A DNA stretch of 63,027 nucleotides, the filler included, from Octopus bimaculoides (lineage: Eukaryota): assembly GCF_001194135.2 (NCBI RefSeq). It is 4 parts of 4 records of this genome, joined end to end, with 100 filler letters (N's around TTAATTAATTAA, not from the genome) between each part and the next. Parts side by side here need not be neighbours in the genome. Positions count along the whole stretch, not along the records: positions 1 to 11,514 come from NC_068988.1; positions 11,615 to 33,606 come from NC_068991.1; positions 33,707 to 58,198 come from NC_068986.1; 1 more part is not named here. One strand, 5' to 3'. Made by a program: the position numbers and the translations under genes. The stretch's first letter is position 1. Every line of letters begins with the position of its first letter. Positions 9,548 through 38,326 of this stretch are shown here, one piece after another. Under the pieces are notes generated by a model. It was not told the origin of the DNA, did no database searches, and was given only the letters and a program-made list of their open reading frames with translations.

Positions 9548-9623
9548 GTCTCTGATGATGGAATACCCACTGTATGGACATGCTAGGCTATCACTTGGGA
9601 TATCTCAGAAACAACTGTATGTC
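9548..9623 (+). ncRNA. Degenerate Type I hammerhead-like motif with a long stem II
   Basis: CTGATGA 9552-9558; partial stem II TGGAATACCCA/TGGGATATCTCA; GAAAC 9608-9612; near-palindromic ACAACTGT; GTA triplet 9617-9619. Stem I pairs only 2 of 4. Confidence 0.45.
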
Positions 9624-9874
9624 TTCAAATTCACCTTACTCTAAATTATTATAAATGACTTGAGATACTCATCCTGCCTTGATTTTTGTTGTCCTTTTCC
9701 TCTAATATATACCTGCTAACATGGAAGCCTGATAGAGATCCCTAGCTCAAACCTCAGCTGTAAACTTGGAACCTAACGGATGACCAATTATAGCACTTAA
9801 TCAGCATACTTATTCATTTAGATCACCAGTGTATTAAATCCCTGGGTGGAGGTGATTATCTCCCCTGCTTGAAA

Positions 9875-10045
9875 ACTTAAGGACACAGGACGCTTGTGTC
9901 ATGTAGCCAACTAGAAACGGTGTTTCTTGGGGCTAAATAGCAGTAGCATTCTTCCCTTTCCTGGGACTGCAACATTAAGTTGGCAACAAACTATCACTTT
10001 ATCATGCTGCTACTGCATAACTCTCTCTGAGAGATTTAGAAATGC
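9875..10045 (+). mobile_element. Fragment of the family C repeat tail
   Basis: TAGCCAACTAGAAACGGTGTTTCTTGGGGCTAAATAGCAGTAGCA...GAGAGATTTAGAAATG matches 24010-24107 and 23760-23800. Confidence 0.75.
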
Positions 10046-10367
10046 AATATTTCTAATTTTATATATATATATATATATATCTGTTTGTCTCTCTGTCTGT
10101 CTCATGTGTGTATTCCCTCCCTGCCTGAGGTTACAGGGTTCTTTTCTGTAGGCTTTTCTTTCCACGGATAAACCTAATTTTGCTTCTTACATTTTAAAAA
10201 TTTCTTCAGTGATAAATGATCCCTTTTGATTGCTGGTTTTTTTTTCCCGACCCTTTTGATCTGAATTTTACTTTTTTTTCCCTTTCTCTTTTTCATTTTT
10301 GAAAAGAAAAGCTCTACATTTGTATTTGTTCCCTCTGTGTTCAGCCCTGTGTGGCCAATAAAGAAAG

Positions 10368-10410
<43 letters not shown>

Positions 10411-10618
10411 CCTACCTACCTACCAACCTACNNNNNNNNNNNNNNNNNNNNNNNNNNNNNNNNNNNNNNNNNNNNNNNNNNNNNNNNNNNNNNNNNNNNN
10501 NNNNNNNNNNNNNNNNNNNNNNNNNNNNNNNNNNNNNNNNNNNNNNNNNNNNNNNNNNNNNNNNNNNNNNNNNNNNNNNNNNNNNNNNNNNNNNNNNNNN
10601 NNNNNNNNNNNNNNNNNN

Positions 10619-10781
10619 CTCGTGTGTTTACGTCCTCGTAACTTAGCGGTTTGGCAAAAAAGACAGATAGGATAAGTACTAGGCTTACAAAGAATAAGTC
10701 ATGGGGTCGATTTGTTCGACTAAAGGCGGTGCTCCAGCATGGCCACAGTCAAATGACTGAAACAAGTAAAAGAGTAAAAGA
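10619..10781 (+). mobile_element. SINE family 2, 3' half
   Basis: GTGTTTACGTCCTCGTAACTTAGCGGTTTGGC...GGTGCTCCAGCATGGCCACAGTCAAATGACTGAAACAAGTAAAAGAGTAAAAG, with multiple copies in the window. Confidence 0.9.
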
Positions 10782-11514
10782 ATTAGGTGAAACGAAAAAG
10801 GGACAACAAAATATCCACAGACAATACAAGGACAGATCATTCGGAGTTTTCTATCCTCAGTCGAGTTCCAGATTATCTTTGCAATTTCTGCTGGTTATAC
10901 TCGAGATTGCGCCAATCTGGCCAGCCCCAAGGAAAAAAATAAGCTAAGAACATTAGATTCCTTGGAAGAAAGCAGTGAATGTATACGAAAACAAGGACGA
11001 AAAAAAAAGAGCAGAGAAATGTTACACAAATACAAATGCAATTAACAGGAAATAACAACAGGTGTATTTCGACTAAGGATGAATTAAATTAAGCTGGCAT
11101 GTGTGGAAGTAAAGCCTTACAGCAGGGACATAAGATTTAACTGTCTGGATGTTTTGTGTTCTTGTCCCATTTCTGTAATTTTTTATATATAAAATATAGC
11201 GGTGTGCGTATACTTTGGTCTCTTATATGTAAGTATATATATATCTAAATTTTGTACGACTCTATTATTCTTTGTATTCTTTCCTTCTTTCTATCAGCCC
11301 TTTCATACTTCGTTCATTCCACCCTTCGTTCTTTCGTTCCCTCTCTCACATTTCCTGGCTTTCTCTTCATGCTCACTTTCCCTCTTTCACTTCACTGTAT
11401 CTGTTTCATTTTTTCTCACCCCTACTTAATTCTGCTATCCCACTTCCTCTACCTCTCTCTCTTCTCTCCTCATGTGACCGGTGTTTGGCCAGACCTGACC
11501 TTTCTTTCTTGGTT
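10782..11514. mobile_element. Copy 2 of the 700-bp repeat unit, with an internal inversion near 11140
   Basis: 10790-11130 is a direct match to 760-960. 11140-11510 is the reverse complement of 740-775 joined to 1020-1410. Confidence 0.7.
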
Positions 11515-11558
11515 NNNNNNNNNNNNNNNNNNNNNNNNNNNNNNNNNNNNNNNNNNNN

Positions 11559-11570
11559 TTAATTAATTAA
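11559..11570. other. Assembly linker TTAATTAATTAA inside an N gap
   Basis: The identical 12-mer is embedded in N runs at three places and has stop codons in all frames. Confidence 0.9.
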
Positions 11571-11614
11571 NNNNNNNNNNNNNNNNNNNNNNNNNNNNNN
11601 NNNNNNNNNNNNNN

Positions 11615-11974
11615 GATACATCAATTAGAAAGCATTTTTTTTTTCATGATCTTTGACAACTATATCTGGTCTATTTGCCTTAATTTCTCTATCTGTGTGT
11701 ATTGGCATATCCCAGAGTATGGTTGCTTTCTCGTTTTCTGTGACCTTTTCTGGCGTGTGTTTATACCATCTTTTTTCTGTTGTTATTCCATAGTGTTGGC
11801 ATAGCTTCCAGTGTATATAGGTCCAAGTTCTGTCGTGTCTGTGAATATATTCCTTCTTAGCCAGGACTGGGCAGCCAGAGATAATATGATTTATTGTTTC
11901 TTGTCCATCTCCACATATTCTACAGTTACTTGTTATGTTTCTTTTCCTTATATGTTTTTGGTAATTTCTGGTAT
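11615..11974 (-). pseudogene. RLE-type non-LTR retrotransposon fragment: CCHC zinc finger and the start of the restriction-like endonuclease
   Basis: Translates as TRNYQKHI..CRICGDGQETINHIISGCPVLAKKEYIHRHD..IHWKLCQHYG..WYKHTPEKV.ENEKATILWDMPIHTDREIKANRPDIVVKDHE. A slip in an A-run precedes CFLIDV. Confidence 0.9.
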
Positions 11975-12007
11975 TAATATTACTGTTATTATTATTATTA
12001 TTATTAT

Positions 12008-12258
12008 TCTTTTATTCTTATATTTTTTCAGTCATTTGACAGCGACCATGCTGGAGCATCGCCTTTAGTTGAACAAATGAACCCCAGGACTTATTCTTTG
12101 TAAGCCTAGTACTTATCTCATCGGTCTCTTTTGCCAAACCGCTAAGTTACAGGAACCTAAACACACCAACATTGGTTGTGAAGCGATGGTGGTGGGAACA
12201 AACACAGACACACAAATATATACATACATACATACATACATACATGTATATATACGTC
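12008..12258 (-). mobile_element. SINE family 2, 3' half with an internal (TATG)n tract
   Basis: Reverse complement of the 10619 and 44506 copies. Confidence 0.88.
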
Positions 12259-12269
12259 TAGATAGAATA

Positions 12270-12490
12270 GAGACAGCTGATGAAGGGATATTCCAAGTGG
12301 CTTTCCGTTTTCCTATGTGTTCGTTCCGTTGTCTGTAGTTTATTGTTCTAACGTCCTGTACCCTGATATGCATGTATATACACATGTAGATGTAAGTATG
12401 TACATATATGTGTGTATACCTGTATATATATTCTTTGTATTATTACATTATTGAACGCACACGTCCTTTTTTGCAAGTAAGTCTACTATT
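12270..12490 (+). mobile_element. Unclassified dispersed repeat of the 'GCTGATGAAGG...ACGTCCTGTACC' family
   Basis: Homologous blocks at 16670-16870, 32600-32790 and, on the minus strand, 26225-26380. Confidence 0.65.
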
Positions 12491-12511
12491 ATTCTGATGT
12501 GACTCTATCTT

Positions 12512-12542
<31 letters not shown>

Positions 12543-13407
12543 GTCTATCTATCTATCTATCTATCTTTCTATCTATTTATCTATCTGTCTTCCTCTATCG
12601 TTCTATCTATCCCTCTGTCCTGGCCTCTATTTCACTGCTATACCCTTCTGTCCCTTCCTCCTTGTNNNNNNNNNNNNNNNNNNNNNNNNNNNNNNNNNNN
12701 NNNNNNNNNNNNNNNNNNNNNNNNNNNNNNNNNNNNNNNNNNNNNNNNNNNNNNNNNNNNNNNNNNNNNNNNNNNNNNNNNNNNNNNNNNNNNNNNNNNN
12801 NNNNNNNNNNNNNNNNNNNNNNNNNNNNNNNNNNNNNNNNNNNNNNNNNNNNNNNNNNNNNNNNNNNNNNNNNNNNNNNNNNNNNNNNNNNNNNNNNNNN
12901 NNNNNNNNNNNNNNNNNNNNNNNNNNNNNNNNNNNNNNNNNNNNNNNNNNNNNNNNNNNNNNNNNNNNNNNNNNNNNNNNNNNNNNNNNNNNNNNNNNNN
13001 NNNNNNNNNNNNNNNNNNNNNNNNNNNNNNNNNNNNNNNNNNNNNNNNNNNNNNNNNNNNNNNNNNNNNNNNNNNNNNNNNNNNNNNNNNNNNNNNNNNN
13101 NNNNNNNNNNNNNNNNNNNNNNNNNNNNNNNNNNNNNNNNNNNNNNNNNNNNNNNNNNNNNNNNNNNNNNNNNNNNNNNNNNNNNNNNNNNNNNNNNNNN
13201 NNNNNNNNNNNNNNNNNNNNNNNNNNNNNNNNNNNNNNNNNNNNNNNNNNNNNNNNNNNNNNNNNNNNNNNNNNNNNNNNNNNNNNNNNNNNNNNNNNNN
13301 NNNNNNNNNNNNNNNNNNNNNNNNNNNNNNNNNNNNNNNNNNNNNNNNNNNNNNNNNNNNNNNNNNNNNNNTACTCTCCCAGTAATATCTCCTCCCCATC
13401 ACCCTCA

Positions 13408-13426
13408 TAATAATAATAATAATAAT

Positions 13427-13459
<33 letters not shown>

Positions 13460-13560
13460 AAGAAGAAGAAGAAGAAGAAGAAGAAGAAGAAGAAGAAGAA
13501 GAAGAAGAAGAAGGACAATTATTACTATTATTATTATTATATATTTATTTATTTATTTAT
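13408..13560. repeat. (AAT)n-(AGA)n-(TAT)n compound microsatellite
   Basis: Directly visible. Confidence 0.95.
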
Positions 13561-13841
13561 TTACTGCTTCAATTCAGTGTCCCATGTTTTACTGCCCTTT
13601 AGGGTATTCATTCAGACGCAGACGCCAGTGTAAAAGACCGTTAATAGCGCATTAATTAACAATAGCGTGTAAATTGCCTGTACAATATGGCCGATGCTCA
13701 TTTCCTTCAGCGGTTTATTTCATTGTTATATTTCTCTTGACATCATGACCGTCATTATTATTGTCATTATCCTTTCTGTATTATTACCATCATTATCATC
13801 ATCAACATCATTATCACTACCGTCATTATTTTTAGCATTAC

Positions 13842-13912
<71 letters not shown>

Positions 13913-14520
13913 GTGATGATGGTGTTGTTGTTATAGTTGTTACTAGCCATGGATGTACGCGTTTACACAACTCAGCTCAGCAAATGATTCCTTGCAGTAT
14001 TACTTGAATCGTATCAGTGAATACGACAACCGTACAAAAAATAGAATTAAATAGAGACAGAAGTACACACGGTTACAATTTGTGATGCACAAAAGAATAA
14101 CGTTACGGAAACAAAATTCAAACGATAACGATATAAACATCACATATAATAACAGTAACTCATCTTTTGGAAGTGTTACAAAACATAAAGTTGCATTAGG
14201 TGTGTTTCGTGGTAAATATAAAAGGAATATAAAAGAGATATATCACAAAATAATTGCCTTCTTGCTCGAAAAATTTACCAAGGGAAGATAATGGAGAAAA
14301 GTAGCATAACTCTGCTTTTGAAAACACGGACACGAAAATTTATATGTCCCCTTGAAGGAGAATAGAACGACGCCCTTGGTGATGTTTAATAGAGGCAGGG
14401 CATCGAGAAAGATGGTTCTAGAAGGCTTTACAGCCCGTGTAAGTTACACGCCTACTCATGAGATGATGGGACCCACTCATTGGTGCTGATCCCTGGACAC
14501 CTCCGGGTATTCTCGGACAT

Positions 14521-15680: not shown

Positions 15681-16863
15681 GTTTGAGAGCAGAAAAGTTA
15701 AAACCAAAGTTCAAAAAAAGTTCGAAGACAAAATAAACAAAAAAGTCAGAAGAAAGAAGGAAGACATTTCAAAACACAGTTGAATAAAGCACAATTCCGG
15801 CCGACAGTATTCCTGGCCTAGGGTAATCCACCAGCAGGAACAGAGCTCCACAAATTGGTACAAATTTCACAAACTTTTGGTAAGATTTACAAATTTTGGT
15901 AAAATTCCACAACTTTTTTTGGAGGTGAAACACGCCCCAAAAACAACAATTTTCAGAGCTCAGTGAGTCACTTAGCGCGACTGCAGGCAGGCAAATGTCC
16001 AGGACTCTGCGAGGATTTCTTATTTGCAAAAAGAAAAACAATATCAAATAACAAACCCCGCTAAATCCGTCCAAAAAACAGATGCCCACCTTACAGTCGC
16101 GCCCTCAACGTAATTCACTTCAAGACCGCTGTGAAAGCACGTCTTGACAGCATTCAGTGCAAAAACAACACTGACTCACGCACGCGCAGTAAGCAAGCTA
16201 CTTACACACTGCCACTTCTACGCCTATATGGAAAAGTATATATATATATACATATGTATGTATGTATGTATGTATGCCTCTCCCCTTCACTACTATATCT
16301 CTCTTTCTTCCTCCCTGTCTCTCGTTGCTCGCCTATATTGTACTTCCTCCCCTTTTTTCTCCCTCTACCATTCTTCCTCCTTATCCATCGCTGGTCACAT
16401 GTGTCCGGCTACTACTTCCTTTCCTATCTTGGCCACTGTCAAGCTCGCACGAACTTTCTTCTGTCTTCCTTCCAGTTCGCCATATCACAGCGTTCAGTAT
16501 ATATTTTTTTCACGTCTGGCCTTATAGTCAGTCCTTCTTGTTTATTTTCACTGTTCCTTTTTCCTGTCTTGTTTTCTGTTCGCCACTACATTCCTCCGCG
16601 TTAAAAATTTAATTTGTTTCCGCGGGAAGAGCATCCTGCCCTAACTATTCGAAACGCTTAGTTTTAGAATGGTGGCAGCTGATGAAGGAAATGTCCTCTT
16701 TGTGGCCTGTGTGTTTTCTGTGCTCTGTTTATGGTCTGTTTCTCATTTTGTCCACGCTTTTTTTTTTGTAACGTCCTGTACCCAGATATGCATCTATATA
16801 TACATGTAGATGTAGGTATGTACATATATGTACGTATATATGCATATACTCATATATTATTTG

Positions 16864-16923
<60 letters not shown>

Positions 16924-17038
16924 GTGTACAAACAATTTACGTATTTATACACGTATTATACATGCTAGAAATGACAGTTAAAGCTCACACCACAAGAGCA
17001 ATTTCAAAGGCAATGAAAATAAAAAATAATATTTTTAT

Positions 17039-17290
17039 ATTCTGTTCTGTCTGGGTAGAGCCATTTTCTTATCGTGCCTTAAAATTTAACACACTCACCG
17101 TTAAAACGGACAGAGTCAAGACTATCGAAAAGGTTGCAAGCTCAACGAAAATTTTAGGAAAATAAAAATAATAAGTGAGCGTGTTAAATTTTAAGGCACG
17201 ATAAGAAAATGACTCTACCCAGATACAACAGAATATGCTTCAACACACGAAATCACATAAAAAATCTTGCAAACCAAATCCAAAAACGAG
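17039..17290. mobile_element. 252-bp insertion with a roughly 58-bp internal inverted repeat and a 10-bp direct-repeat flank
   Basis: ATATTTTTAT occurs at 17029-17038 and 17291-17300. The inverted repeat is about 17040-17098 versus 17175-17235. Confidence 0.65.
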
Positions 17291-17305
17291 ATATTTTTAT
17301 AGCTA

Positions 17306-17376
17306 CCCTCAAACTCGAGTTTTTGTATCAATGTGCAAAATAGATTAATTTGCCATCCGTACTTCTTCAGTGGGGG
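17306..17376 (-). ncRNA. Type I hammerhead motif, family B (G12 mutated to A)
   Basis: The minus strand reads CCCCCA-CTGAAGA-AGTA...TACA-AAAAC-TCGA-GTT-TGAGGG, with a perfect palindromic helix III ACTCGAGT. Confidence 0.65.
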
Positions 17377-17780
17377 CGCTAAAATGAATGCATATTTATG
17401 CAGCAAATAGCACCGAAAATATACGTGCTACATACTTATACATTATAATTTTCAAATCCACAGCGCAATCGCAGTTACATTCGGCAGCGAATAATAATAA
17501 AAAATTAAAACTGCGTACCAGAAAGGCTTCGAAACTACGATAATTTTACTGTGAAAATAATAAGGGTAGAAAACTTAGAAAAATGTTCATACCGGTGGCC
17601 GGCATGCGTAATAAAGTCAATAGACAACATATTTTCATATGTAATAGTCTATAAACAATTTACGTATTTATACATGAAAGAGGTGACCTTAAAAGATGGA
17701 GTTGAAAATTATAATATATAAGTATATAGCACGTGTATTTTCGGTGCTATTTGCTGCATAAATATGCATTCATTTTAGCG

Positions 17781-17851
17781 CCCTCACTGAAGAATTACGG
17801 ATGGCAAATTAATTTATTTTGCACATTGATACAGAAACTCGAATCTGAGGG
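17781..17851 (+). ncRNA. Type I hammerhead motif, family B (core intact, helix III mismatch)
   Basis: CCCTCA 17781-17786 / TGAGGG 17846-17851 form a 6-bp stem I; CTGAAGA 17787-17793; GAAAC 17834-17838; TCGA; ATC triplet. Confidence 0.7.
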
Positions 17852-18099
17852 TAACTCCAAAAATATTTTTTTAGTTTTTATTTTCATTGCCTTTGAAATT
17901 GCACTTATTCGTGGTTTGGGCTTTAACTGTCCTTTCTAACATGTAAAGTGTCCTGTTAAAGGTTACTTCTTTCGTGTATAAATACGTAAGTTGTTTGTAC
18001 ACTATTATATATGAAAATCTGTTGTCTATTGACTTTATTACACATGCTAGCCACCGGTATGAAAACTTTTCTAAATTTTCTACCCTTATTATTTTCACA

Positions 18100-18138
<39 letters not shown>

Positions 18139-19629: not shown

Positions 19630-19980
19630 TAAGACGACAAGAGAAAGAAAGAGACCTCAATATTATGTAAATAGAGGAATTTATCCGTAAATAATATGTG
19701 ACAATTATTTGGTAGCCATGATAAAACTCCGAGTTTCGGATGGCGGGGCGGAAACTCACGCCTTCAGTTATCTGGCCATCGAAAAAAATGCTATGAAAAT
19801 GACCGTTAAACAAAGGGAAATTACGGTCAATCACAAAGTAATTACCCTTTGTTTAACGGTCATTTTCATAGCATTATTTCGATGGCCAGATAACTGAAGA
19901 GATGGCGACGTGTGTTTCCGCCCCGACATCCGAAACTCAGAGTCTTATCATGGCTACCGAATAATTGTCACATATTATCT
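19630..19980. mobile_element. Family A fold-back: two outward-facing hammerhead-bearing units
   Basis: Arms of about 19693-19824 and 19838-19978 are reverse complements around a 13-nt spacer. Confidence 0.9.
19883..19956 (+). ncRNA. Type I hammerhead ribozyme, family A, apparently intact (predicted cut after C19944)
   Basis: Stem I TGGCCAGATAA / TTATC(A)TGGCTA (11 bp, one bulge); CTGAAGA 19894-19900; stem II GATG/CATC plus one extra C; GAAAC 19932-19936; helix III ACT-CAG-AGT; GTC 19942-19944. Confidence 0.8.
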
Positions 19981-20369
19981 ACACACACNNNNNNNNNNNN
20001 NNNNNNNNNNNNNNNNNNNNNNNNNNNNNNNNNNNNNNNNNNNNNNNNNNNNNNNNNNNNNNNNNNNNNNNNNNNNNNNNNNNNNNNNNNNNNNNNNNNN
20101 NNNNNNNNNNNNNNNNNNNNNNNNNNNNNNNNNNNNNNNNNNNNNNNNNNNNNNNNNNNNNNNNNNNNNNNNNNNNNNNNNNNNNNNNNNNNNNNNNNNN
20201 NNNNNNNNNNNNNNNNNNNNNNNNNNNNNNNNNNNNNNNNNNNNNNNCCTTTTTGAAGGCTGGGTAGGTAGTAGCAGATCTGAAGAAGTAGCGTTTATGG
20301 GTGCAGAGAAATGTTTGGTTCTGAAGTTTGATGGTTTAAGCAGCAGCAGCCGAGGAAGGAGACGGCGAA

Positions 20370-20475: not shown

Positions 20476-20829
20476 ACGGGAATGATATGACCCAGTAGTA
20501 GAGTTGTCCCTGGTATCTTTAATGGTCAAGTGGACTAAAAGTGACCTATTGTGCTTGTAGCAATAGTGGTAGGAATTGTTCTAAATAAATTCATGAGTAG
20601 CGACTGTTCTTAATATATCTATCGTTTTTAATATTTGCGTGTATTATTCTAAGATCCTTATAGTAGTGTAACCTGTGGTGGAGGCATTCAAAAGAGGTTT
20701 ATATTTTTGCGATAAAATATGATTTAGTAAAGGTTAGTACCGATTTCAGTCATTTCGACTTTTTCAACTAAGTGTAAAACAAAGGTGGGTATTAATTAAG
20801 AAAAAAAAACAATTAAATTGACAAAAATG

Positions 20830-21095
20830 TGCTGATTATAGGTTGCATTGTCCCCGAACTTATAGAGGGGAAAAATTCTAAAGTTTGATTGTCTATTAGT
20901 TGCGCAAATGCCAATGCGTTCAGTTAATGCTATTTTTCTGTATTCCCGTATTTTCATCTGGAATCTATGTACGGTCATCCTCTGGCGTAGACTGTTTTTT
21001 GTTTGACCAATGTATTGCTCTCGACACCCTGAGCAAGTTAACGCATATATTAGGTTTCCGAAGCACATGTGAAGTTGTTTTCCACCGTAAAACGT
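20830..21095 (-). pseudogene. Penelope-like GIY-YIG endonuclease fragment
   Basis: Translates as FTVENNFTCAS / NLIYALTCSGCREQYIGQTKNSLRQRMTVHR...FRIFPLYKF, with the GIY-YIG equivalents LIY and YIG and the catalytic R. Confidence 0.85.
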
Positions 21096-21295
21096 TTACC
21101 ATTATAAAGAGCAAAAGACAACTCAAATCAATGAAAAGTCTTCTAACACAAGCCCAAGTACACTTGTCAACAACATCAAAACCGACTGCAAAAAAATGCT
21201 GAAGACCTAACTGTGGTATATGCGTCGACCTAATTGAGGGATAGGTGTTCTCCTTCAAACAGGGTCAACGTTTTACAGTGAAAAGAGAAAATGAT
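21096..21295 (+). pseudogene. Inverted upstream linker segment of the same Penelope-like ORF
   Basis: Translates as TIIKSKRQLKSMKSLLTQA...AKKC*RPNCGICVDLIEG*VFSFKQGQRFTVK, the CxxxxCxxC linker that precedes GIY-YIG in Penelope-like elements. Confidence 0.75.
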
Positions 21296-23180: not shown

Positions 23181-23223
<43 letters not shown>

Positions 23224-23430
23224 ATTATAATTTCTAAATCTCTCAAGGAGAGATATTCAGTAACAGCTCTTTAAAGTAAAGATCATTTGCCAACATAATA
23301 TGACTGTCCTGGATAGAACGATTGTTACAGTTGTTTAGCCCCAGGAAACATCGTTCCAGCTCGGTATGCGGCACAATATCTGTGTCCTTATATTTTCAAA
23401 CAGGGAATCCAGCAACTACATCCAGCACAA

Positions 23431-23489
23431 AGCAAAATCTGTGGACCGGTTCCTGGGTTATTGCTCTTTATCAGTATAGAATAGCTGCT
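23431..23489 (-). ncRNA. Type I hammerhead-like motif, family C, degenerate
   Basis: The minus strand reads TCTATA-CTGATAA-AGAGCAATAACCCA-GGAAC-CG-GTC-CACAGA. Confidence 0.5.
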
Positions 23490-23888
23490 TGGCTAGGTGG
23501 TGTCGCTGAATTCGCATATAATTTTCATAGTGACACATAGTTACTGGTCTAATAAATGGAAACATTATCATTTCTAAATCTCTCACAGAAAGCTGTTCAG
23601 TAACAGTTCTTAAAGTAAAGATTATTAGCCAACGTAATATAGCTGTCCTGGATAGGACGATTGTTACTGTTATTTAACTCCAGGAAACATCGTTTGCAGC
23701 TGGCTATACTACACAATATCTGTATCCTTATATTTGAAAATCATATATTACTTTAAAGAAATGTTACTGTATATCTCTCTTTGAGAAATTTAGAAATAAT
23801 AATGTTTCCATTTATTAGCTCAGTGATTGTGTGTCACTTAGAAAATTATATATTTTCGAACGGGAATTCAGCGACGCCACCTGACCAA

Positions 23889-23945
23889 GCAACTATTCTG
23901 TGCTGGTAAAGCGCAATAACCCAGAAACCGGTCCACAGATGTTGC
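23889..23945 (+). ncRNA. Type I hammerhead-like motif, family C
   Basis: Stem I GCAAC..TCTGTG / CACAGA.GTTGC; core CTGGTAA (two changes from CTGATGA); GAAAC 23924-23928; palindromic helix III ACCGGT; GTC 23931-23933. Confidence 0.6.
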
Positions 23946-24454
23946 TTTCTGCTGAATGGGGTTGCTGGACTTCCTGTTCGAAAATATAAAGAGACACAGA
24001 TATTGTAACGTATAGCCAGCTAGAAACGATGTTTCCTGGGGCTAAACAACAGTAGCAATCGTCCTATCCAGGACAGCTATATTATGTTGGCAAACAATCT
24101 TTACTTTATATACATATATATATATATATACTCACACACACACACGAGTGTAGTAAGCGTTAACACTCATATACAAAATGTGTGTTTGCTTGTTCAATGG
24201 TCGGCTACGATTCAGGAGCAATAGATATCAATGTTTCACCATTTTTGTGGCTTATCAACACCACGTACTTGAAGGTAATTTTATAGTTAGAGGTATATAT
24301 AAAGTTATGGAAATTTGTATATATGCAAGTACGCACGTATACATATACACACATACACATGTATCCATACGTCCGTATATATACACGCAGACACATGCAT
24401 ATACCTACACATATACATACATCCACACGCGCACACATATCCGCACATACATGT

Positions 24455-24486
<32 letters not shown>

Positions 24487-24499
24487 AATAGTCATGGTA

Positions 24500-24945
24500 T
24501 GACAACAAAAGAATGAATGAGACCTCGATATTATCTGTAATTTATCTGTAATATAATATGTGACAATTATTCGGTTGCCATAATAACACTCCGAGTTTTG
24601 GATGTAGGGGCGGAAATTTGCTCCGGCATCTCGTCAATTATTAAGGCAATCAAAAAATTTAGAAATGTGTAGGCATGTACATCGGCGCGTACGCGATTTC
24701 TATGAGCATTTTTACATTTTTACTTTTTTACTTTCTCCCCTTCGGTTTTTTCCCCTTATTTAACGGTCATTCTAATAGCTCTTTTGTCTTAATAACGGTC
24801 AATCACAAAGTAATCTCCCTTGTTTAACGGTCATTTTCATAGCATTTTTTGATTATCTCGATAGCTGAAGAGATGCCAGTGCAGATTTCCGCCCCGACAT
24901 CCGAAACTCGGAGCTTTATTATGGCAACCGAATAATTGTTACATA
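24500..24945. mobile_element. Family A divergent pair; both hammerhead cores mutated
   Basis: Minus copy 24500-24650 has TTGACGA...CATCCAAAAC..GTG. Plus copy 24740-24945 has CTGAAGA 24865-24871, GAAAC 24903-24907 and triplet GCT. Confidence 0.85.
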
Positions 24946-25639
24946 TATTACAGATATATATATTTACATGCGCAAATACATGAATACGTATGCACACCCA
25001 CACATACATATATATAGATGCGTTTACTCCTTTTATCTACCACCCCTTAGAAGAAGTGAATACAGATCCGTATAGTTCGATTCATTCCGATTGGTTAATG
25101 AAATTTTGAATTATTTTGTTTACTTTATAGCGTTTCAAGGAAAGTATATTTGTTTTGAACGGTTTTGCAAACTTTTGGTGTCTGGATGTGCATATCAAAG
25201 TAACTGACATTTAGATACGCATGTGTACAAGCGTACATAAATTTAATCAGAGATATACATATACGCATACATACGCCTATACATACATAAACACACACAT
25301 AGAGGCACATACTTACGCCTGAACAGACGCACACATATGTACGCATACACTCAGACACATACACGTGTACTTATATACATATATATACACAAATACGGAT
25401 ATATATATATATATANNNNNNNNNNNNNNNNNNNNNNNNNNNNNNNNNNNNNNNNNNNNNNNNNNNNNNNNNNNNNNNNNNNNNNNNNNNNNNNNNNNNN
25501 NNNNNNNNNNNNNNNNNNNNNNNNNNNNNNNNNNNNNNNNNNNNNNNNNNNNNNNNNNNNNNNNNNNNNNNNNNNNNNNNNNNNNNNNNNNNNNNNNNNN
25601 NNNNNNNNNNNNNNNNNNNNNNNNNNNNNNNNNNNNNNN

Positions 25640-25675: not shown

Positions 25676-27490
25676 ATATGCATATACGTACTTTTATATA
25701 CATATATACATATATACACAGATGCACATACATACATCCGCATACATGCATGTCCAAATACATATGAACACACATATACGCACATGCGTATATATCACAC
25801 CTGACATATATACATATATACACACATGTTCCCTTGTACACATACATACATAGGCACACATTCACCCCTAAACATACATATGTGGCTTTACATGCTTACA
25901 GATACATACAGAGATACGTAAGATATGTGGATAGATATGTCTACATATATGTGCACATATACACCCATGTACATGCATGTCTCAGTATACATACACACAC
26001 AATGGATATATATATATATATGCATATATACATACGCACACACATATACGCAGGAGTACATGTATGCATTCCCACGCACTCATGTTTTGGTTACATTTGG
26101 TCGTATTTATATACACATACATACATACATATACATGCATATAAACATATATATACATATATACATATAAACATATATAACAAGCATACACATGCATATA
26201 TATGTATACATATACACACACATATATATGCATATATGAGTACAGGACGTCACCAACAGATGAAATACGAAAACAAATGAGTTAAATACGCAAACAATGA
26301 GAGAAAATATGAAGAACAGGACAAGTAACACAAAGAACGACCCTTGTTGGCTGTCTATCTACTCCTCATTTCGAGCATGTATATATATATATATATATAT
26401 ATNNNNNNNNNNNNNNNNNNNNNNNNNNNNNNNNNNNNNNNNNNNNNNNNNNNNNNNNNNNNNNNNNNNTACATACATACAGACATAAACCTGCATATAG
26501 GTAAGTTAGCGGTTGTAATGACCATCTAAGGGATAATATTATCCATACTTACTATCAGTATCAGTTACCTATGCTATTCTTGGGCATGGGTATGCAGGCA
26601 CACTATGCTGATAGGGTGCAGGTAACAACAGAATGTTTAAAAAGTGTATCAGTAATCAAATTTGAATAATCAGAAAATGGAGAAAACTTTTGATCAACAA
26701 ACAAACAAATTGACCAACTTCGGTTGATTATTTTTTAATACAAAAATTGACATAACATCTCTTACGGCCGTTTCTGCTTCCAATGTTAGTCGGTACTTCC
26801 GACAGAAATTCCGAAAATAATATTCATCTTCATTGCTCATTCGATCTAGTTTTATCAGAGTGAATACAAATGCAAATAATAAAATAAACGAAAGGAAGTG
26901 GAGAGATGAAAGAGCAGGGCCTTGAGATGACGCCGGAAGGCTCAATATATTAGAATCATACCATCTTGCAGAGTGGAGCTTGAAGACTATAGCTTGAAGA
27001 CTATATGTAAAAGAGTGATCTAACAGTGATTTAGAGAAATATTTATGGGTTATTTCTATATAAAGAGGAACCAGGGTGTGTGAGTAGTTGTGAAATGAAG
27101 AAGCGGAAATGGCCGTAAGAAATGTTAAATCATGTTTTGTATTAAAATATAATCAACCGATGTTGGCCAATGTGGTTGTTTGTTGATCAAAGGTTTTCTC
27201 CATTTTCTGATTATTTAAATTTTATACCTGCATATATATACACAGACACACACCTGCATAAACAATGATATATGTATATCGTTACACACACGTGCATGTG
27301 CTCTTACCCGCACATGCACACATGCACATATATACATATACAGACATACGTTCATATGCATATATACACAATGATGAATGTGTCTGTTCATACACACACA
27401 TGTGTGCACACAGATACGCATCTACATACATACACGTTTAAAATATGTATCATAACTAATTAAGTGTGTATGCGTACATCTACGTAGGTA
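25640..27490 (+). repeat. Left arm of a long low-complexity inverted repeat, interrupted at about 26240-27225
   Basis: 25830-25985 is the reverse complement of 29950-30105. 27300-27480 is the reverse complement of 29462-29660. Confidence 0.75.
26658..27222. mobile_element. Fold-back or MITE-like element with inverted repeats of about 120 bp
   Basis: 26658-26780 and 27100-27222 are reverse complements with scattered mismatches. Confidence 0.85.
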
Positions 27491-27744
27491 TAAAGGAAAG
27501 GAAAATATTTTATTCAGTTGTATGTAAAAACTATTATAAGGCGGGAGAGAATTATTTTAGTGGAAATAATTTCTAAGAATGCATAAGGTGTGTACATAAA
27601 TAGGCACATATTAGTTTAAATTGTATATATACACATATATATGCATATACATACTCACATAAATATATGCACGTACATGCGCACGCATGCACACACATAT
27701 ATACACCCGCATACACTTATGTACATATATATCTATACATATAC

Positions 27745-28839: not shown

Positions 28840-29448
28840 GAGAACATATATTTTCCCGCATGAATATAAGTAATATTTTTCTCTTTTGGTAAGTTAAGTA
28901 GTGTATTCCTGGAAGTAAGAATATAGAAGGTCTCTGTGATGCATAGATTACATTTCTTGTTATTGGTTTTATAAGCCGTTACAGAAGCAATGATATCTCA
29001 TTTAATTTCAAATTCAATGTCATTATCTTTTAATTCCCATATGAATTTGATTAATCCGGTGGAGTTGATTTTCTGATTATTTTTAAAATATTGGAGATGG
29101 TTAGCCATGCGAGTCTTAACTTTATTTTCGGTAGAGCCAATGTAATTTTTTTTTCCCGGAGCTTCAACTGTGCATTGATAGACTACATTTCTTCTCTTAC
29201 ATGAATACTTAAATTTACTAAATTTACAGTCACGATTTTCATAAATGTGCGTATTTATTAGAAGAATTGATATGAATGGAGTTAATATGGGTAATTACGG
29301 TTCCATAATTGGGAATTATGTGGCCGTTATTATTAGAGTTTGTGGGGTTTGGGAGATATGGTTTAAGTTTAGGAGAATTAGTAGAATTGTTGTCATGGCA
29401 ATTTTTATTGGTGTAAAATTCATTTAATTTTCTGTTGTTAATTGACAA
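28840..29448 (-). pseudogene. Penelope-like GIY-YIG endonuclease domain, decayed
   Basis: Translates as RNVVYQCTVEAPGKKNYIGSTENKVKTRMANH...STGLIKFIWELKDNDIEFEIK*DII...KCNLCITETFYIL...LLN. Confidence 0.88.
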
Positions 29449-29454
29449 TATATA

Positions 29455-30267
29455 CTTAAGTAGATGTATGCATACGAATACACGCGTAATTAATTATGAT
29501 ATACGAAGATACATATTTTAAACGTGCATGTAGGTAGATGTATATCTAAGTACACACACCTGTGTGTATGAATAGACGCATACGTCTGTGTGTACATGCG
29601 TATGAACGTATGTCTGTATATGTATATATGTGCATGCATAAATGTGCGGGTATGACCACATGCACGTGAGTGTGCAGATATACATATATCTGTATTTATA
29701 CAGGTGTGTGTGTGTGTGTGTATATATATATATGCAGGTATATGTGTGTATGTAAGTGTATGTATGCATATATATGTGTGTGTGTGCGTGTACATATATA
29801 TGTATGCATGTGTATGCGTGTATATACATATTTATATGTATATATGTGTGTGTGTATGTATATACGAGCAAATGTATACAACCATAAGTGCGTGCGAATG
29901 TATACATGTACACCTGCGTATGTGTGTAAAAATATATGTGTGTATGTATGCTGAGACATACATGTGAATGGATATATATGCGTACATATATGTAGACATA
30001 TCTATCTACATGTCTTATGTATCTCTGTATGTGTCTGAATTGCATGTATAGCCACATATGTATGTTTAGGGGTGAATGTGTGCCTCTGTATGTATGTGCA
30101 TGAGGGAACGTGTGAGTATATATGTATATATGTAAGCTGTGATATATATGTATGTACGTATATGCGCGTTCATATATATATATATAGACATGCATGTATG
30201 CGAATGTATGTATGTGCATCTGTGTATATATGTATATAAATGTATGTATATGCATATATACATGTGT

Positions 30268-31027: not shown

Positions 31028-31249
31028 AATACATTTCTAAATCTCTCAGAGAGATTTATGCAATAGTGATACGGGTATGTATATATATATATATGTATAT
31101 ATTTTGGGCGAATGTGTGGGTGAGCATGTGTGTGTTTCAAGTGAGGGTGGATGAGTATATATATATATAGGCACATGTACGTGGGTGTGCGGGCGCGCAT
31201 GTGTATGTATGGATATGCGTGATTACGCGATTACTATGAATATTTTTAC

Positions 31250-31530
31250 TCCCTTACCTTTACTTCCTCCCCTTACTTAGCGGTCATTCTAATAGCTCTT
31301 TTGTCTTAATAACGGTCAATCACACAGTAATTTCCTTTTGTTTAACGGTCATGATCATAGCACTCTTTTGATGGCCCGATAACTGAAGAGATGCCGACGT
31401 GGATCTCCGCTCCGACATCCGAAACTCGGAGTTTTATCATGGCTACCGAATAATTGTCACATATTATATTTACAGATAAATTCCTCTATTTACATAATAT
31501 CGAGGTCTCTTTCATTCTTTTGTTGTCTTA
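31250..31530 (+). mobile_element. Family A unit, single copy
   Basis: Colinear with 24740-24945. It ends GAGGTCTCTTTCATTCTTTTGTTGTC, the same end seen inverted at 19630, 24500 and 37490. Confidence 0.88.
31372..31445 (+). ncRNA. Type I hammerhead ribozyme, family A, core intact (GUU triplet)
   Basis: GATAA/TTATC stem I; CTGAAGA 31383-31389; GATG/CATC; GAAAC 31421-31425; ACTCGGAGT; GTT 31431-31433. Confidence 0.75.
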
Positions 31531-32791
31531 ACACTTCTATCAGTATATATATTTATGCGAGCTGGCAGAAACGTTAGCACGCCGGGCNNNNNNNNNNNNN
31601 NNNNNNNNNNNNNNNNNNNNNNNNNNNNNNNNNNNNNNNNNNNNNNNNNNNNNNNNNNNNNNNNNNNNNNNNNNNNNNNNNNNNNNNNNNNNNNNNNNNN
31701 NNNNNNNNNNNNNNNNNNNNNNNNNNNNNNNNNNNNNNNNNNNNNNNNNNNNNNNNNNNNNNNNNNNNNNNNNNNNNNNNNNNNNNNNNNNNNNNNNNNN
31801 NNNNNNNNNNNNNNNNNNNNNNNNNNNNNNNNNNNNNNNNNNNNNNNNNNNNNNNNNNNNNNNNNNNNNNNNNNNNNNNNNNNNNNNNNNNNNNNNNNNN
31901 NNNNNNNNNNNNNNNNNNNNNNNNNNNNNNNNNNNNNNNNNNNNNNNNNNNNNNNNNNNNNNNNNNNNNNNNNNNNNNNNNNNNNNNNNNNNNNNNNNNN
32001 NNNNNNNNNNNNNNNNNNNNNNNNNNNNNNNNNNNNNNNNNNNNNNNNNNNNNNNNNNNNNNNNNNNNNNNNNNNNNNNNNNNNNNNNNNNNNNNNNNNN
32101 NNNNNNNNNNNNNNNNNNNNNNNNNNNNNNNNNNNNNNNNNNNNNNNNNNNNNNNNNNNNNNNNNNNNNNNNNNNNNNNNNNNNNNNNNNNNNNNNNNNN
32201 NNNNNNNNNNNNNNNNNNNNNNNNNNNNNNNNNNNNNNNNNNNNNNNNNNNNNNNNNNNNNNNNNNNNNNNNNNNNNNNNNNNNNNNNNNNNNNNNNNNN
32301 NNNNNNNNNNNNNNNNNNNNNNNNNNNNNNNNNNNNNNNNNNNNNNNNNNNNNNNNNNNNNNNNNNNNNNNNNNNNNNNNNNNNNNNNNNNNNNNNNNNN
32401 NNNNNNNNNNNNNNNNNNNNNNNNNNNNNNNNNNNNNNNNNNNNNNNNNNNNNNNNATATATATATATATATAAAGAGAGAGAGACAGACAGAGCGCGCA
32501 ATAAACATAAACACGCACGCAAACGAATATAGAGAGAGATGTACAAACATACATACAAACATACATGCATGCATGCCATACATACACACATACATACAAA
32601 CATACTTCGAAACGCCGGTGTTAAAACGGAGGTAGCTGATGAAGTAGAATGTTCTCTATGTGGCTTGTGTTTTTTCTCGTCTCTGTTTTGTTTGCAATGT
32701 CCTGTACCCAGATATGCACCTATACATACAAGTGGATGTCGGTATGCACATACCTGTACGTATATATGCATATACTCATTTACTATTTGTT

Positions 32792-33272: not shown

Positions 33273-33320
<48 letters not shown>

Positions 33321-33424: not shown

Positions 33425-33425
33425 C

Positions 33426-33508
<83 letters not shown>

Positions 33509-33541
33509 AAAGCAGGCAGACAGACAGACAGACAGACAGGC

Positions 33542-33606
<65 letters not shown>
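33425..33606. repeat. (GATA)n/(GACA)n microsatellite
   Basis: Directly visible. Confidence 0.97.
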
Positions 33607-33650
33607 NNNNNNNNNNNNNNNNNNNNNNNNNNNNNNNNNNNNNNNNNNNN

Positions 33651-33662
33651 TTAATTAATTAA
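33651..33662. other. Assembly linker TTAATTAATTAA
   Basis: Embedded in an N gap. Confidence 0.9.
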
Positions 33663-33723
33663 NNNNNNNNNNNNNNNNNNNNNNNNNNNNNNNNNNNNNN
33701 NNNNNNACCACCACCACCATCAC

Positions 33724-33772
<49 letters not shown>

Positions 33773-35760
33773 AGCAGCAGAACCACCACCACCATCACTA
33801 CACACGCACCACCACCACCACTACACATACACCACCACCACTACCACCTCAACCATAACAACAACGGCGACGACGACCACTACCATGGCCGCTTCTAGCA
33901 TTAACACCATCACTACCACTACTGTCATGACCAGCACTAACCTGACCTCACGACCCCGACCATCATCATTATCACGATCACCACCATCACCATCAACGTC
34001 GTACTAATCTCATGTAGTACAAATATTTATGCATATATTTACAAATGTTTACATCGTTGCTTCATTATGTTAAATATTTCGAATAATGTATTTGATAGTT
34101 TAGTGTAACACCCGAACATATGTCATGACAAGCGAAATATAGATAATTACATTGTAATAATAAAGATATTTACACTTTCATTCTTTCTTTTAATGTGAAT
34201 TAATAACTAGCCAGGATAGGTTTTTTTTTTTTTTTTACTTTTCACCCTTCAGAGTCAATAAAATACACATGCAATTCATATATTGAAGGGAATTGAATCG
34301 TCTATTCTCTCTCCGCCTCCATTTGTAGGCTTATAAGAAATCACTATTGATTATTTAGCTCTCAATGTGATTCAAAATATCAGAAGCTAATCCATTCAAA
34401 AATATTGACTTTTGTGAGCACACATGCACAAAGTCTGGGGTTACTTTTCCATTCTTTTCCGCGAAGGAACATAGTACTGTACACGCATTTCCCATGAATA
34501 AACGGGATACAAGAAATAAAATGATNNNNNNNNNNNNNNNNNNNNNNNNNNNNNNNNNNNNNNNNNNNNNNNNNNNNNNNNNNNNNNNNNNNNNNNNNNN
34601 NNNNNNNNNNNNNNNNNNNNNNNNNNNNNNNNNNNNNNNNNNNNNNNNNNNNNNNNNNNNNNNNNNNNNNNNNNNNNNNNNNNNNNNNNNNNNNNNNNNN
34701 NNNNNNNNNNNNNNNNNNNNNNNNNNNNNNNNNNNNNNNNNNNNNNNNNNNNNNNNNNNNNNNNNNNNNNNNNNNNNNNNNNNNNNNNNNNNNNNNNNNN
34801 NNNNNNNNNNNNNNNNNNNNNNNNNNNNNNNNNNNNNNNNNNNNNNNNNNNNNNNNNNNNNNNNNNNNNNNNNNNNNNNNNNNNNNNNNNNNNNNNNNNN
34901 NNNNNNNNNNNNNNNNNNNNNNNNNNNNNNNNNNNNNNNNNNNNNNNNNNNNNNNNNNNNNNNNNNNNNNNNNNNNNNNNNNNNNNNNNNNNNNNNNNNN
35001 NNNNNNNNNNNNNNNNNNNNNNNNNNNNNNNNNNNNNNNNNNNNNNNNNNNNNNNNNNNNNNNNNNNNNNNNNNNNNNNNNNNNNNNNNNNNNNNNNNNN
35101 NNNNNNNNNNNNNNNNNNNNNNNNNNNNNNNNNNNNNNNNNNNNNNNNNNNNNNNNNNNNNNNNNNNNNNNNNNNNNNNNNNNNNNNNNNNNNNNNNNNN
35201 NNNNNNNNNNNNNNNNNNNNNNNNNNNNNNNNNNNNNNNNNNNNNNNNNNNNNNNNNNNNNNNNNNNNNNNNNNNNNNNNNNNNNNNNNNNNNNNNNNNN
35301 NNNNNNNNNNNNNNNNNNNNNNNNNNNNNNNNNNNNNNNNNNNNNNNNNNNNNNNNNNNNNNNNNNNNNNNNNNNNNNNNNNNNNNNNNNNNNNNNNNAA
35401 AAAAGAAAGAGATGCATGGACTTATAAGATCGCTGGCTCTACTCAAATCTGAATAACAAATGAAATTATTATTAACAAGTGAAGTGTCATACCATTGAAG
35501 ATTCGGTTTTTATCATATTTCTGACAACAACAACCGGTTATTCTTGAATATGAAGAATATTCCATAAAATGAAGAAGACATTTCAATTAAGAATGATGAG
35601 TTGATTCAACCAATCAAACAAACGGATTTGCTGATGATAATATAGAACCTGGAGAATTTTATTTTATATATAATACTGAAACTTTAGTTGTGCATCCAGA
35701 GCAGAAACAAGCCTGAAATGGGGCCTCTGACTGGAATGAGTTCATTTGAGTAACGCTTAC

Positions 35761-35856
35761 TCCTTCACTGGGCAGAGTTCGGTGCATGAAGAGGCAGGTC
35801 GAAATCACATGATCTGGTGGTCTTAGCACTGGCGCTGACGGGGATTTATCTCCCCG
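35761..35856 (-). CDS. Candidate 96-nt internal exon of an unknown host gene
   Basis: Bounded by ...TCGCTAG and GTAAGC. A single open frame reads RGDKSPSAPVLRPPDHVISTCLFMHRTLPSEG. No homology recognised. Confidence 0.25.
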
Positions 35857-37489
35857 CTAGCGATATAAACAAGAGTGCATTTTGCACCAAAAGCCAATAT
35901 GAGAGTTTCTCATGGTAATTACTGCACTATAGTCTGTTCTAACAGAACATCCACGTTTAAATGGGAATAGATATTACATCGCGGTATCAATACTGCTTCT
36001 GTCGCTAATATGCACTTTTTGGCATAAAGAATTTACTAATGGGCGATGAAGAAGGCACAAACGAACAATCTACCATGATTAAAATATTTTCAATAAAGTG
36101 AGGATTATCAGCAAAATTTGTCTAGAATCTTTGTATTCAAATGAGAACGACGATCTTTACCTTAAGACTTCTAAATCTAGGTTTAATTCTGAGAGCCGGT
36201 ACCTCGCTATTGTGCTTCATGGCATGAAAGAAATGCGAGTTAACTTGCTTCTTAGTCCGTACAGGTAACATTTTCCGATGATCCAATTTCTTATTTACGA
36301 CAGCTAAGTGAAAACTAAGGAGATATAGAACAAAATGTTCAGACACGTCGAAAGGCCTGATCAGATTCGAATTAATACAACGGAAGCTAGTCATCCATAT
36401 TAATTTGAGTCATTCATGTCTACATATTCTATTACCAATGAAGAAAATTGGACGATACAAAGGTTAAAAATATACACAGTTGAAATATTTGGAAGAGACA
36501 ACAATTGATTAGCATTAAAAGTTTGGTTTTGTAACTAATAATACTAACACAATACATTGATCAACATAGTTTCCCCAAGATACTAAATAAGACAACAGCT
36601 CTGCTGATACCGAACGATAATTCTTCACTAAATAACTCAAGTAATGTAATGCGTTGTCAAGACACACAAATTAGTTGCTGACCTCATGTCTTTGCGCACA
36701 AAGAAAAATTTTGCAACTACATAAAATCCTTTAGCTAGATTAATTTCACGGCTGATTACGAAACTACCACCTCGAGGTGATGAACGAGGAAAGAAAGTCT
36801 ACCACTTGTCCTTATCGGTACATCTGATGAAGTCACAAAAATGCATACACACAATCATGCATGCATGTATGCATTCAATTTGTGTTTAGACAACTGAAAA
36901 ACAGAGAAGAAAAAGAGATACAGACATACAAACACTACTAAACGCATGCCTTATACAGCATGAGAAGTGACGAGCATCGTATTTGCTTTAAGGGAAAATG
37001 TTGCAAATTCAAGTAGATTGTGAAATAGAGTAATTGAATGTTTTAAATAGTTCTCTTTTGAATTATGAGTCAGAAACAGAAACGGAGAAGATGGATTTTG
37101 AATTTAATTCTGAGTTTCGACTCTAGAATTCGCTTACAAAGACTATGCCCATCTTTCAATAATTGGCTCATCTACTCCACTCACTTTACTTTCTCACTCA
37201 CTTTCTGACTTAGGTTCAAAGCCAGCTATATTGTAGGGAGGGGATTGGTCGATACTATTCATCCAACATCAGCATTATTAACAACAACAACAACAACAAC
37301 AACAACAATAATAATAATAATAATAATAATCCTTTTGTCTTGAAACTTTGGGGGAGGGGGGGGAGCAAGTCGATTACATCGCCCCAGTGCATAACTGGTA
37401 ATTATTTCACATCGACCCCTATGCTACTTGTCCCGTTTTCCGTTTGTTATGCATATATATATATGCGTATATATGTATATATTTGACAG

Positions 37490-38326
37490 GAAGGACAACA
37501 AAAGAAAGAAAGAGACCTCGATATTATGCAAATAGAGGAATTTATCTATAAAAATATGTGATACTTATTCAGTAGCCATGATAAAACTTCGAGTTTCGGA
37601 TGCCAGGGTGGGAGCTCACGCCAACATCTCTTCAGTTAGCCGGCCAATTGAAAATTCCTGTAAAAAATGACCGTTAAAAACAAAGGGTAAATTACTGTGT
37701 AGTGACAAGGTCAAAACGCGTCTAAAACTACGTATATTATCGCATGCACGCATATATCCATATACGCACGCACATATCTCTATATACACATGCATATATC
37801 TACATACGCACGCATCCACGCGCACACTCACAAGCGCGCACATATAAAGTTCCTTGTACGTGTCTATAAGCGTACAGGAAAAGAGTTTGGAGGGGAGAAA
37901 ACAGAAAAATGTGTGGAAAAATACAAAAACATTAACCCTATAATTATGTAAAAAAACATGAAAATAATTAAAAAATATAAAAATATAAAAATATAAAATC
38001 CAGGTAAAAAAGTGAAAAGCTTATACATAGACACAATATAGAAACCTATCAGTACAGTCCCATCAGCAGGGCCTATCAGTAAAAATATTAAAAAATATTA
38101 AGAAATATATAAGAAATGTAAGTAATAATTATAGAGAGATAAAAAGCTTAGGGATAGACACAAAAATAGAAAGCAAGTCCAATCAGTAAACCCAGGGGGA
38201 CCAAAAACGTAGCAAATATTTGGCCACATGTGGACATGATCCGAAAAGTTCAGTCTTTGAATTTAGACATGTGGTGGGGTCTAAGCTGCCTTTCCAGATG
38301 AGCTATCTTTCCATATTACATAGACC
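37490..38326 (-). mobile_element. Penelope-like element 3' end: endonuclease C-terminus, 3' region and family A hammerhead unit
   Basis: 38195-38310 translates as ER*LIWKGSLDPTTCLNSKTELFGSCPHVAKYLLRFW (the LN..xEL..C.H..K.LL terminal motif of these elements). A family A unit lies on the same strand at 37490-37700. Confidence 0.7.
37573..37646 (-). ncRNA. Type I hammerhead ribozyme, family A, core intact with weakened stem I
   Basis: The minus strand reads CTAA-CTGAAGA-GATGTTGG...CTGGCATC-C-GAAAC-TCGAA-GTT-TTATCATGGCT, with an 8-bp stem II including G-U pairs. Confidence 0.7.

Follow-up and report, generated by a model that had tools for sequence, protein, structure and literature searches.

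A 63,027-nt stretch of Octopus bimaculoides DNA (assembly GCF_001194135.2, four parts joined by filler; called the window below) carries type I hammerhead ribozyme motifs inside repeats that are very probably decayed insertions of the Penelope-like element (PLE) type, an arrangement on record from many other animals. The system is an ordinary one and works like a PLE terminal repeat. Its class, the dimer model of its ribozyme, its inverted pairs and its link to retrozymes have all been published, so that the gain here is one of cataloguing; the new part is small and may lie in the families themselves, an extra base before GAAA and possibly a fixed C3-A8 mismatch in one of them. The window is AT-rich, microsatellite-dense animal DNA, 10,520 N included. 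An earlier note had described at least ten motifs in at least three short repeat families, and all ten motifs of families A, B and C (six, two and two) were recovered at the places and on the strands it gave, as were four inverted pairs whose hammerhead-sense strands point outward. Its picture of motif quality was too favorable: the motif is present in 10 of 10 copies and free of defects in only two (A 19894+ and A 31383+). Two others keep all conserved core bases and have a helix mismatch (A 37635- and B 17787+), while the core is damaged in the remaining six (A 19767-, A 24865+, A 24637-, B 17370-, C 23474- and C 23903+). A complete CUGANGA/GAAA/UH core in type I order is found in 4 of the 10 family copies, and in a further hammerhead, E, that the earlier note did not contain.

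It is very probable that these decayed repeats were inserted by a PLE reverse transcriptase-endonuclease, either as truncated ends of a coding PLE (E) or as short units without an open reading frame (ORF; B, C and probably A). Families B and C are non-autonomous PLEs close to non-LTR (long terminal repeat) retrozymes. The motifs, their defects, the pairs, tails, tandem units, TA flanks, endonuclease remnant and copy number are seen directly; the mobilizing enzyme, a two-nick pathway and dimeric cleavage are inferred, the insertion steps from this anatomy and from the PLE protein of Anolis.

Hammerhead families A, B and C

Family A is represented by two inverted pairs and two single copies.

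19889-19949, plus: A hammerhead without defect (C3 at 19894), with its predicted cut after 19944; right arm 19819-19982, which stops at the short 3′ end
19720-19772, minus: A hammerhead that has lost 8 nt across A9 and helix II; left arm 19827-19618, extending to the long 3′ end and followed by a TA-rich tract
24860-24920, plus: A hammerhead with U16.1 changed to C; right arm about 24690-24959, short end
24582-24642, minus: A hammerhead with C3 changed to U, G12 to A, and G at H17; left arm 24655-24488, long end, then (TA)n
31378-31438, plus: A hammerhead without defect, U at H17; element at least 31268-31545, long end
37580-37640, minus: A hammerhead with intact core, helices I and III each mismatched; element 37700-37480, reaching the long end

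The A arms stop at two defined 3′ ends, four of them at the long end and two at a short end approximately 50-70 nt earlier, and each A pair consists of one long arm and one short arm. Helices I and II can pair in A, B and E (the test included G10.1-C11.1), with 85% of cells paired in family A versus 26-52% in slid controls.

Family B is found as a single pair, whose right-arm hammerhead (17787+) has a mismatch in helix III, ACTCGAAT.

16915-17693, minus: B left arm, a unit of about 490 nt without ORF plus the start of the next; hammerhead 17376-17306, G12 changed to A
17697-18100, plus: B right arm, its head 3 nt from that of the left arm, ending in (TA)n; hammerhead 17781-17851

Family B is built like C, as a head-to-tail repeat, here with units of about 490 nt, and its tail measures about 90 nt. 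The left arm is interrupted by a palindromic insertion (17037-17236, arms of about 60 nt) that resembles a miniature inverted-repeat transposable element (MITE) or another inverted pair.

Family C is a non-coding 339-nt unit in head-to-tail arrangement, extending to approximately 1.5 units.

23220-23735, minus: C left arm, a 120-nt 3′ piece, a full 339-nt unit, a tail of about 55 nt and (TA)n; hammerhead 23480-23438
23728-24108, plus: C right arm, a single unit that lacks the tail and is followed by (TA)n; hammerhead 23897-23939
9863-10058, plus: 5′-truncated C copy, unit end and C tail, then (TA)n, with no hammerhead remaining
31032-31066, minus: C tail fragment

The C tail is the start of the next unit; it is seen on the left arm, in the 9.9-kb copy and in the 31.0-kb fragment, and is absent from the right arm. 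Because the tail equals the sequence one period upstream, the 339-nt unit likely represents the complete family C element, as opposed to the end of a longer one. Core damage consists of G8 to A and A13 to G in C 23474-, and of A6 to G and G8 to A in C 23903+.

The excess of these motifs over chance depends on the number of defects allowed. A strict hammerhead descriptor gave two matches in the window versus none in each of 20 dinucleotide shuffles. A PLE-type descriptor, tuned after the motifs had been seen, gave two matches at zero defects (mean 0.01, maximum 1, in 95 shuffles) and seven at up to one defect (mean 0.40, maximum 3), these seven being five A copies, one B copy and E and thus only three independent families. 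At two defects there was no excess, with 14 matches against a mean of 6.3 and a maximum of 16 in the shuffles. The hammerhead signal is real up to one defect and is lost at two. In pattern scans of metagenome, genome and viral contig sets no hammerhead-family match was obtained; one 17-nt viral match (L001), in which the 5′ core is missing, was attributed to chance.

The palindromic helix III would form a self-duplex between two molecules, computed at -7.4 to -10.7 kcal/mol for those A, B and C sequences that are undamaged (A -7.4 to -9.7, C -8.3), whereas closing it within one molecule brings no added stability (+0.4 kcal/mol). These computed folding energies fit the dimer model, with cleavage itself a prediction. 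Much like the PLE hammerheads of Cervera and de la Pena 2014 (PMC4209133), those of the window follow the type I order, with a short helix I, a long or bulged helix II, G10.1-C11.1 and a palindromic helix III. That study also describes low dimeric activity and the U3-A8 variant, the latter being the one that E carries. As in that study, most of our copies are single or in opposite-strand pairs (published minimal hammerhead pairs lie 100-700 bp apart) and many divergent families occur per genome. Unlike the published examples, most window families (A, B, C, E and F) have an extra base before GAAA, AGAAA being present in only one of 56 published rows, apparently that of Cotesia; family A, for its part, has a 9-nt near-palindrome and is without the extra base that usually follows A9. 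Hammerhead core variants, including a 10.1-11.1 mismatch, can be active (PMC3088659).

Insertion anatomy and endonuclease remnants

Remnants of PLE protein also occur in the window. The two GIY-YIG matches below come from a Pfam scan of 77 frames, and both are under the curated cut-off.

20734-20771, minus: hammerhead E, C3 position at 20767, core of the U3-A8 type, helices I and II of 4 bp each, helix III ATCGGT
20799-21095, minus: broken C-terminal PLE GIY-YIG endonuclease (Pfam PF01541, E-value 1.7e-4; best phmmer E-value 7.4e-18)
21098-21295, plus: inverted upstream piece of the same PLE frame, head to head (tblastn to P0017 residues 578-642, E-value 1e-8)
28890-29240, minus: second broken PLE-type GIY-YIG remnant (Pfam frame 29001-29207, E-value 9.9e-4; tblastn)
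54767-54981, plus: a third remnant of a PLE endonuclease, in head-to-head arrangement with a hammerhead-like but degenerate motif at 54751 (minus)

Hammerhead E sits 32 nt behind the GIY-YIG frame. A HMMER search with that frame returned 539 relatives at E-values up to 0.001, while two word-based protein searches returned none. Among ten long relatives tested, RVT_1 was present in six, GIY-YIG in eight and both in five, with the nuclease C-terminal. The inverted piece at 21098-21295 is the linker between reverse transcriptase and endonuclease; its cysteine motif, of a type known from Neptune and Nematis PLEs, is broken. No inverted copy was found of the 3′ end of E beyond 21.3 kb, or of the 54.75-kb arm beyond 54.94 kb. 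Nested inverted repeats (25823-26104 with 29864-30114, and 27254-27492 with 29451-29703) surround the GIY-YIG remnant at 28.9-29.2 kb and are probably one PLE insertion with an inverted 3′ copy.

The element ends share a common context. A (TA)4 tract adjoins 11 of 13 3′ ends, versus 3.0% of unmasked positions, where the 13 ends were picked by eye and the arms of one pair are not independent. Head-to-head inverted, 5′-truncated partners are seen in five pairs and in the inversion within E, and a tail is carried by one end only in both A pairs and in the C pair. The fifth pair is that of family F (26655-27225), since the motif that the earlier note had listed as a weaker singleton at 26.8 kb has an inverted partner at 27.1 kb, likewise pointing outward.

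26655-26780, minus: family F, left arm
27100-27225, plus: family F, right arm

Only halves of the form GAAA-palindrome-UH are recognizable in F, so the 26.8-kb motif stands as a 3′ half alone. The companion singleton has both boxes and fails in helix I:

9552-9620, plus: 9.55-kb singleton, both core boxes, a long helix II and no helix I partner; unconfirmed

This anatomy resembles that of Neptune- and Nematis-type PLEs (PMC3846280, PMC8557442, PMC11167929) in its 5′ truncation, head-to-head partner, tail at one end and AT-rich or microsatellite targets, and E further resembles them in its C-terminal GIY-YIG preceded by a cysteine linker. Head-to-head PLE pairs with a one-sided tail are on record, self-priming on an antisense template having been proposed for their junctions (PMC3846280). 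Craig et al. 2021 (PMC8557442) described (TA)n targets, inverted partners and tails at one end, and also non-autonomous PLEs in head-to-tail arrangement. The Anolis PLE protein cuts both strands of AT-rich DNA, two start sites bounding the tail, and hammerhead cleavage is unnecessary for insertion in vitro; self-cleavage was also unseen for the active Anolis element (PMC11167929). Unlike the Neptune and Nematis elements, those in the window have tails of about 50-70 nt (about 90 in B) versus 30-40 nt, and A, B and C lack an ORF.

The most likely pathway for such insertions would begin with a PLE protein nicking both strands of a (TA)n tract. Element RNA would then be reverse-transcribed from each nick, from one of two start sites approximately 50-70 nt apart, and synthesis would end after 130-520 nt. 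Joining of the two short complementary DNAs (cDNAs) at their truncated 5′ heads would leave an outward inverted pair with the tail on one arm, the hammerhead traveling inside the terminal repeat. Two nicks with two start sites would account for arms that point outward, for a tail on one side and for the flanking TA. In an intact tandem transcript, cleavage would presumably be confined to dimers formed through the palindromic helix III, probably aided by protein. The copies in the window have decayed since insertion, and most of them would no longer cut.

Family-wide reads and competing explanations

Four of 24 listed sequencing runs were aligned to positions 23221-24950 (1.7 kb, the C pair and one A pair) at 80% likeness, as DNA contigs and RNA reads from two organisms. 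In organism A 8,321 contigs aligned and in organism B 9,752, of which 78% and 72% were less than 95% alike; these contig counts are not copy numbers, and part of them is TA-rich filler. Contig depth over the A and C arms runs from thousands to hundreds of thousands, versus about 30 for a single exact contig. The idea of a local cluster, put forward in the earlier note, was not borne out: the families are genome-wide repeats, A and C being highly repeated in two organisms. Letter differences, for which 40 of 371 rows are listed, restore several damaged positions by the majority letter among those rows. C3 of the A copy at 24637 is restored in 62 of 62 RNA reads and in 97% and 86% of DNA depth, U16.1 of the A copy (24914) in 212 of 246 RNA reads with T in 99% and 98% of DNA depth, and A6 of C (23906) in 97 of 103 RNA reads and in 92% and 93% of DNA depth. 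Helix I positions 23475 and 23477 of C are restored in 26 of 26 each; the listed rows do not include 23469 and 23908, which are position 8 in the two C copies. The extra base before GAAA in A and C is removed in none of the 12 indel rows listed out of 14.

RNA reads on the same interval numbered 1,753 and 1,616; 98-99% were less than 95% alike, strands were about equal, and 82-87% continued into unlike sequence. No pile-up of read ends was present at the predicted cut sites 23444, 23933, 24587 and 24915 in two RNA-seq runs, a weak test on fragmented cDNA of unrecorded strandedness; the sole RNA read end listed was at 23610. No RNA back-joint occurred among the 15 of 360 joints listed, and on the tandem left arm a C-circle junction would produce no joint in the alignment. 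A joint seen only in RNA (23248/23782) was considered as a fold-back and rejected as an alignment switch, lying within 3 nt of the inverted homology of the C arms. As far as this weak test goes, the reads fit passengers in host transcripts.

Several observations weigh against insertion by a PLE enzyme or against the ribozyme assignment. No hammerhead reached the Rfam gathering score in the window (Hammerhead_1, RF00163, gave the 31.4-kb A copy 13.3 bits at an E-value of 1.5, below the 34-bit cut-off) and covariation among the six A copies, few and decayed, did not exceed shuffles (2 double changes versus 1.9). The hammerhead fold of the monomer lies 5-14 kcal/mol above the minimum-energy fold. 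Pairing in helix II of family C is weak at best, and both copies in the window carry A at position 8. No reverse transcriptase remnant was found anywhere in the window, and no PLE coding sequence or ORF is joined to A, B or C there. Target-site duplications are unreadable in (TA)n, the tails exceed the published length, and the ends were picked by eye from arms that are partly dependent. The remaining Rfam matches are microRNA-like, on microsatellites, with no hammerhead among the 150 of 226 listed or in the 33 of 33 of another scan.

On balance the PLE origin proposed in the earlier note stands on its tails, (TA)n targets, head-to-head pairs and adjoining GIY-YIG remnant, while active ribozyme or retrozyme families find no support here, given that most copies are damaged, no arm has two hammerheads, no read ends mark the cut sites and covariation equals that of shuffles. 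Non-autonomy is likewise supported for B and C, as tandem units without ORF, and may extend to A. Non-coding units of small size, partial head-to-tail tandems, a low GC content and the presence of a type I hammerhead in the unit are shared with non-autonomous PLEs (for example MRC1 of the Chlamys group, PMC8557442) and with non-LTR retrozymes (PMC7229834; bioRxiv 10.64898/2026.07.22.740005); the Chlamys elements, unlike the window families, are mostly without hammerheads (PMC8557442).

One could ask whether B and C, and also A, are active non-LTR retrozymes, whose tandem transcripts are cut by two hammerheads to monomers of 340-490 nt, circularized and reinserted by rolling reverse transcription. 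Units of 339 and about 490 nt fall in or near the published 150-450 bp (PMC7229834), B slightly above it; copies are longer than one unit, and RNA reads on A and C come from both strands. This proposal overlaps with our own, as the 2026 preprint (bioRxiv 10.64898/2026.07.22.740005) argues that retrozymes derive from PLE repeats and are non-autonomous PLE derivatives. Two hammerheads in tandem, by which that preprint defines a retrozyme, are found in no arm of any family in this window, and the hammerheads are of PLE type and not canonical. Both C cores are damaged, and the reads are passenger-like on both strands without a pile-up at the cut sites (weak evidence, from fragmented cDNA). We consider active retrozymes improbable. 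The presence of at least 11 hammerhead-like motifs within 28 kb might instead suggest a special locus that keeps them to process a long host transcript, which we judge very improbable: 8 of 10 copies are damaged relative to the family-wide letters, only 21 of 1,753 and 24 of 1,616 RNA reads on 23221-24950 are at least 95% alike to the locus, and the families are highly repeated elsewhere. To the notion that the inverted pairs are MITE-like DNA transposons matching a hammerhead by chance we give almost no credence. Outward inverted arms in a TA context do resemble MITEs, and neither an Rfam match nor a covariation signal speaks for a ribozyme. Yet the arms have unequal ends, variable junctions and tandem tails, single arms exist (31.4, 37.6 and 9.9 kb), matches exceed shuffles (7 versus 0.4), and one core order recurs across families whose helices differ.

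Within the PLE reading, a bolder version would have a hammerhead peculiar to this lineage, in which families A, B, C, E and F share an added base between helix II and GAAA, and at least one 340-nt mini-PLE without ORF (C) that spread in the genomes of two species with a fixed C3-A8 mismatch. We hold this to be unlikely. If true, the hammerhead fold might still serve the PLE protein as a handle although catalysis has been lost, and the family would make it possible to test directly whether transposition of PLEs depends on hammerhead cleavage. More generally, families with intact and with mismatched cores could serve the question of whether cleavage matters for PLE mobility, and insertion as PLEs explains short inverted repeats that could be mislabeled as MITEs.

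Penelope is among the abundant repeats of coleoids (PMC8967140), and the giant squid genome has 235 Rfam hammerhead matches (PMC6962438). The searchable part of the PMC4209133 supplement contains no cephalopod name, and no paper on octopus hammerhead families was found in the literature searched, to which Dfam and Repbase do not belong; Lunse et al. 2017 may list them. The families described here add hammerhead-bearing PLEs, including two short units without ORF, for an animal group that had no such description in that literature.

Other motifs and repeats in the window

A further repeat, family D, carries a CTGATGA box and a matching helix I with an ACGT palindrome.

12255-12400, plus: family D copy
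16640-16800, plus: family D copy
32600-32780, plus: family D copy
26225-26385, minus: family D copy

Core box and helix I are parted by 45-90 nt of pyrimidine-rich sequence without GAAA, and in two copies GAAACG occurs approximately 30 nt upstream. Family D may be a hammerhead, split or dead, within a further PLE-type repeat.

Other hammerhead-like sequences are more isolated. A minimal motif at 6918-6953 (minus) has U for A6 and is followed by a repeat-like tail ending in (TATG)n. At 54285-54330 (minus), CTGATGA and GAAA stand only 2 nt apart and are followed by the palindrome ATCTAGAT, giving a hammerhead-like sequence without helix II. Two rearranged copies of another repeat (723-1406 and 10780-11514) include a CTGAGGA box (10860, minus); neither offers a convincing hammerhead.

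Remains of other mobile elements are also present. A C-terminal fragment of a non-LTR retrotransposon lies at 11628-11969 (minus; Pfam zf-RVT, E-value 5e-5), presumably of the type with a restriction-like nuclease. Two copies of a helicase C-terminal fragment at 60895-61188 and 61565-61761 (plus; weak UvrD_C_2 match) are what we take to be Helitron-like. The cephalopod label of the earlier note would agree with the short interspersed elements (SINEs) at 7.8-8.0 kb and 48-55 kb. Tandem arrays with 62-nt and 16-nt units occupy 8145-8369 and 51349-52206.

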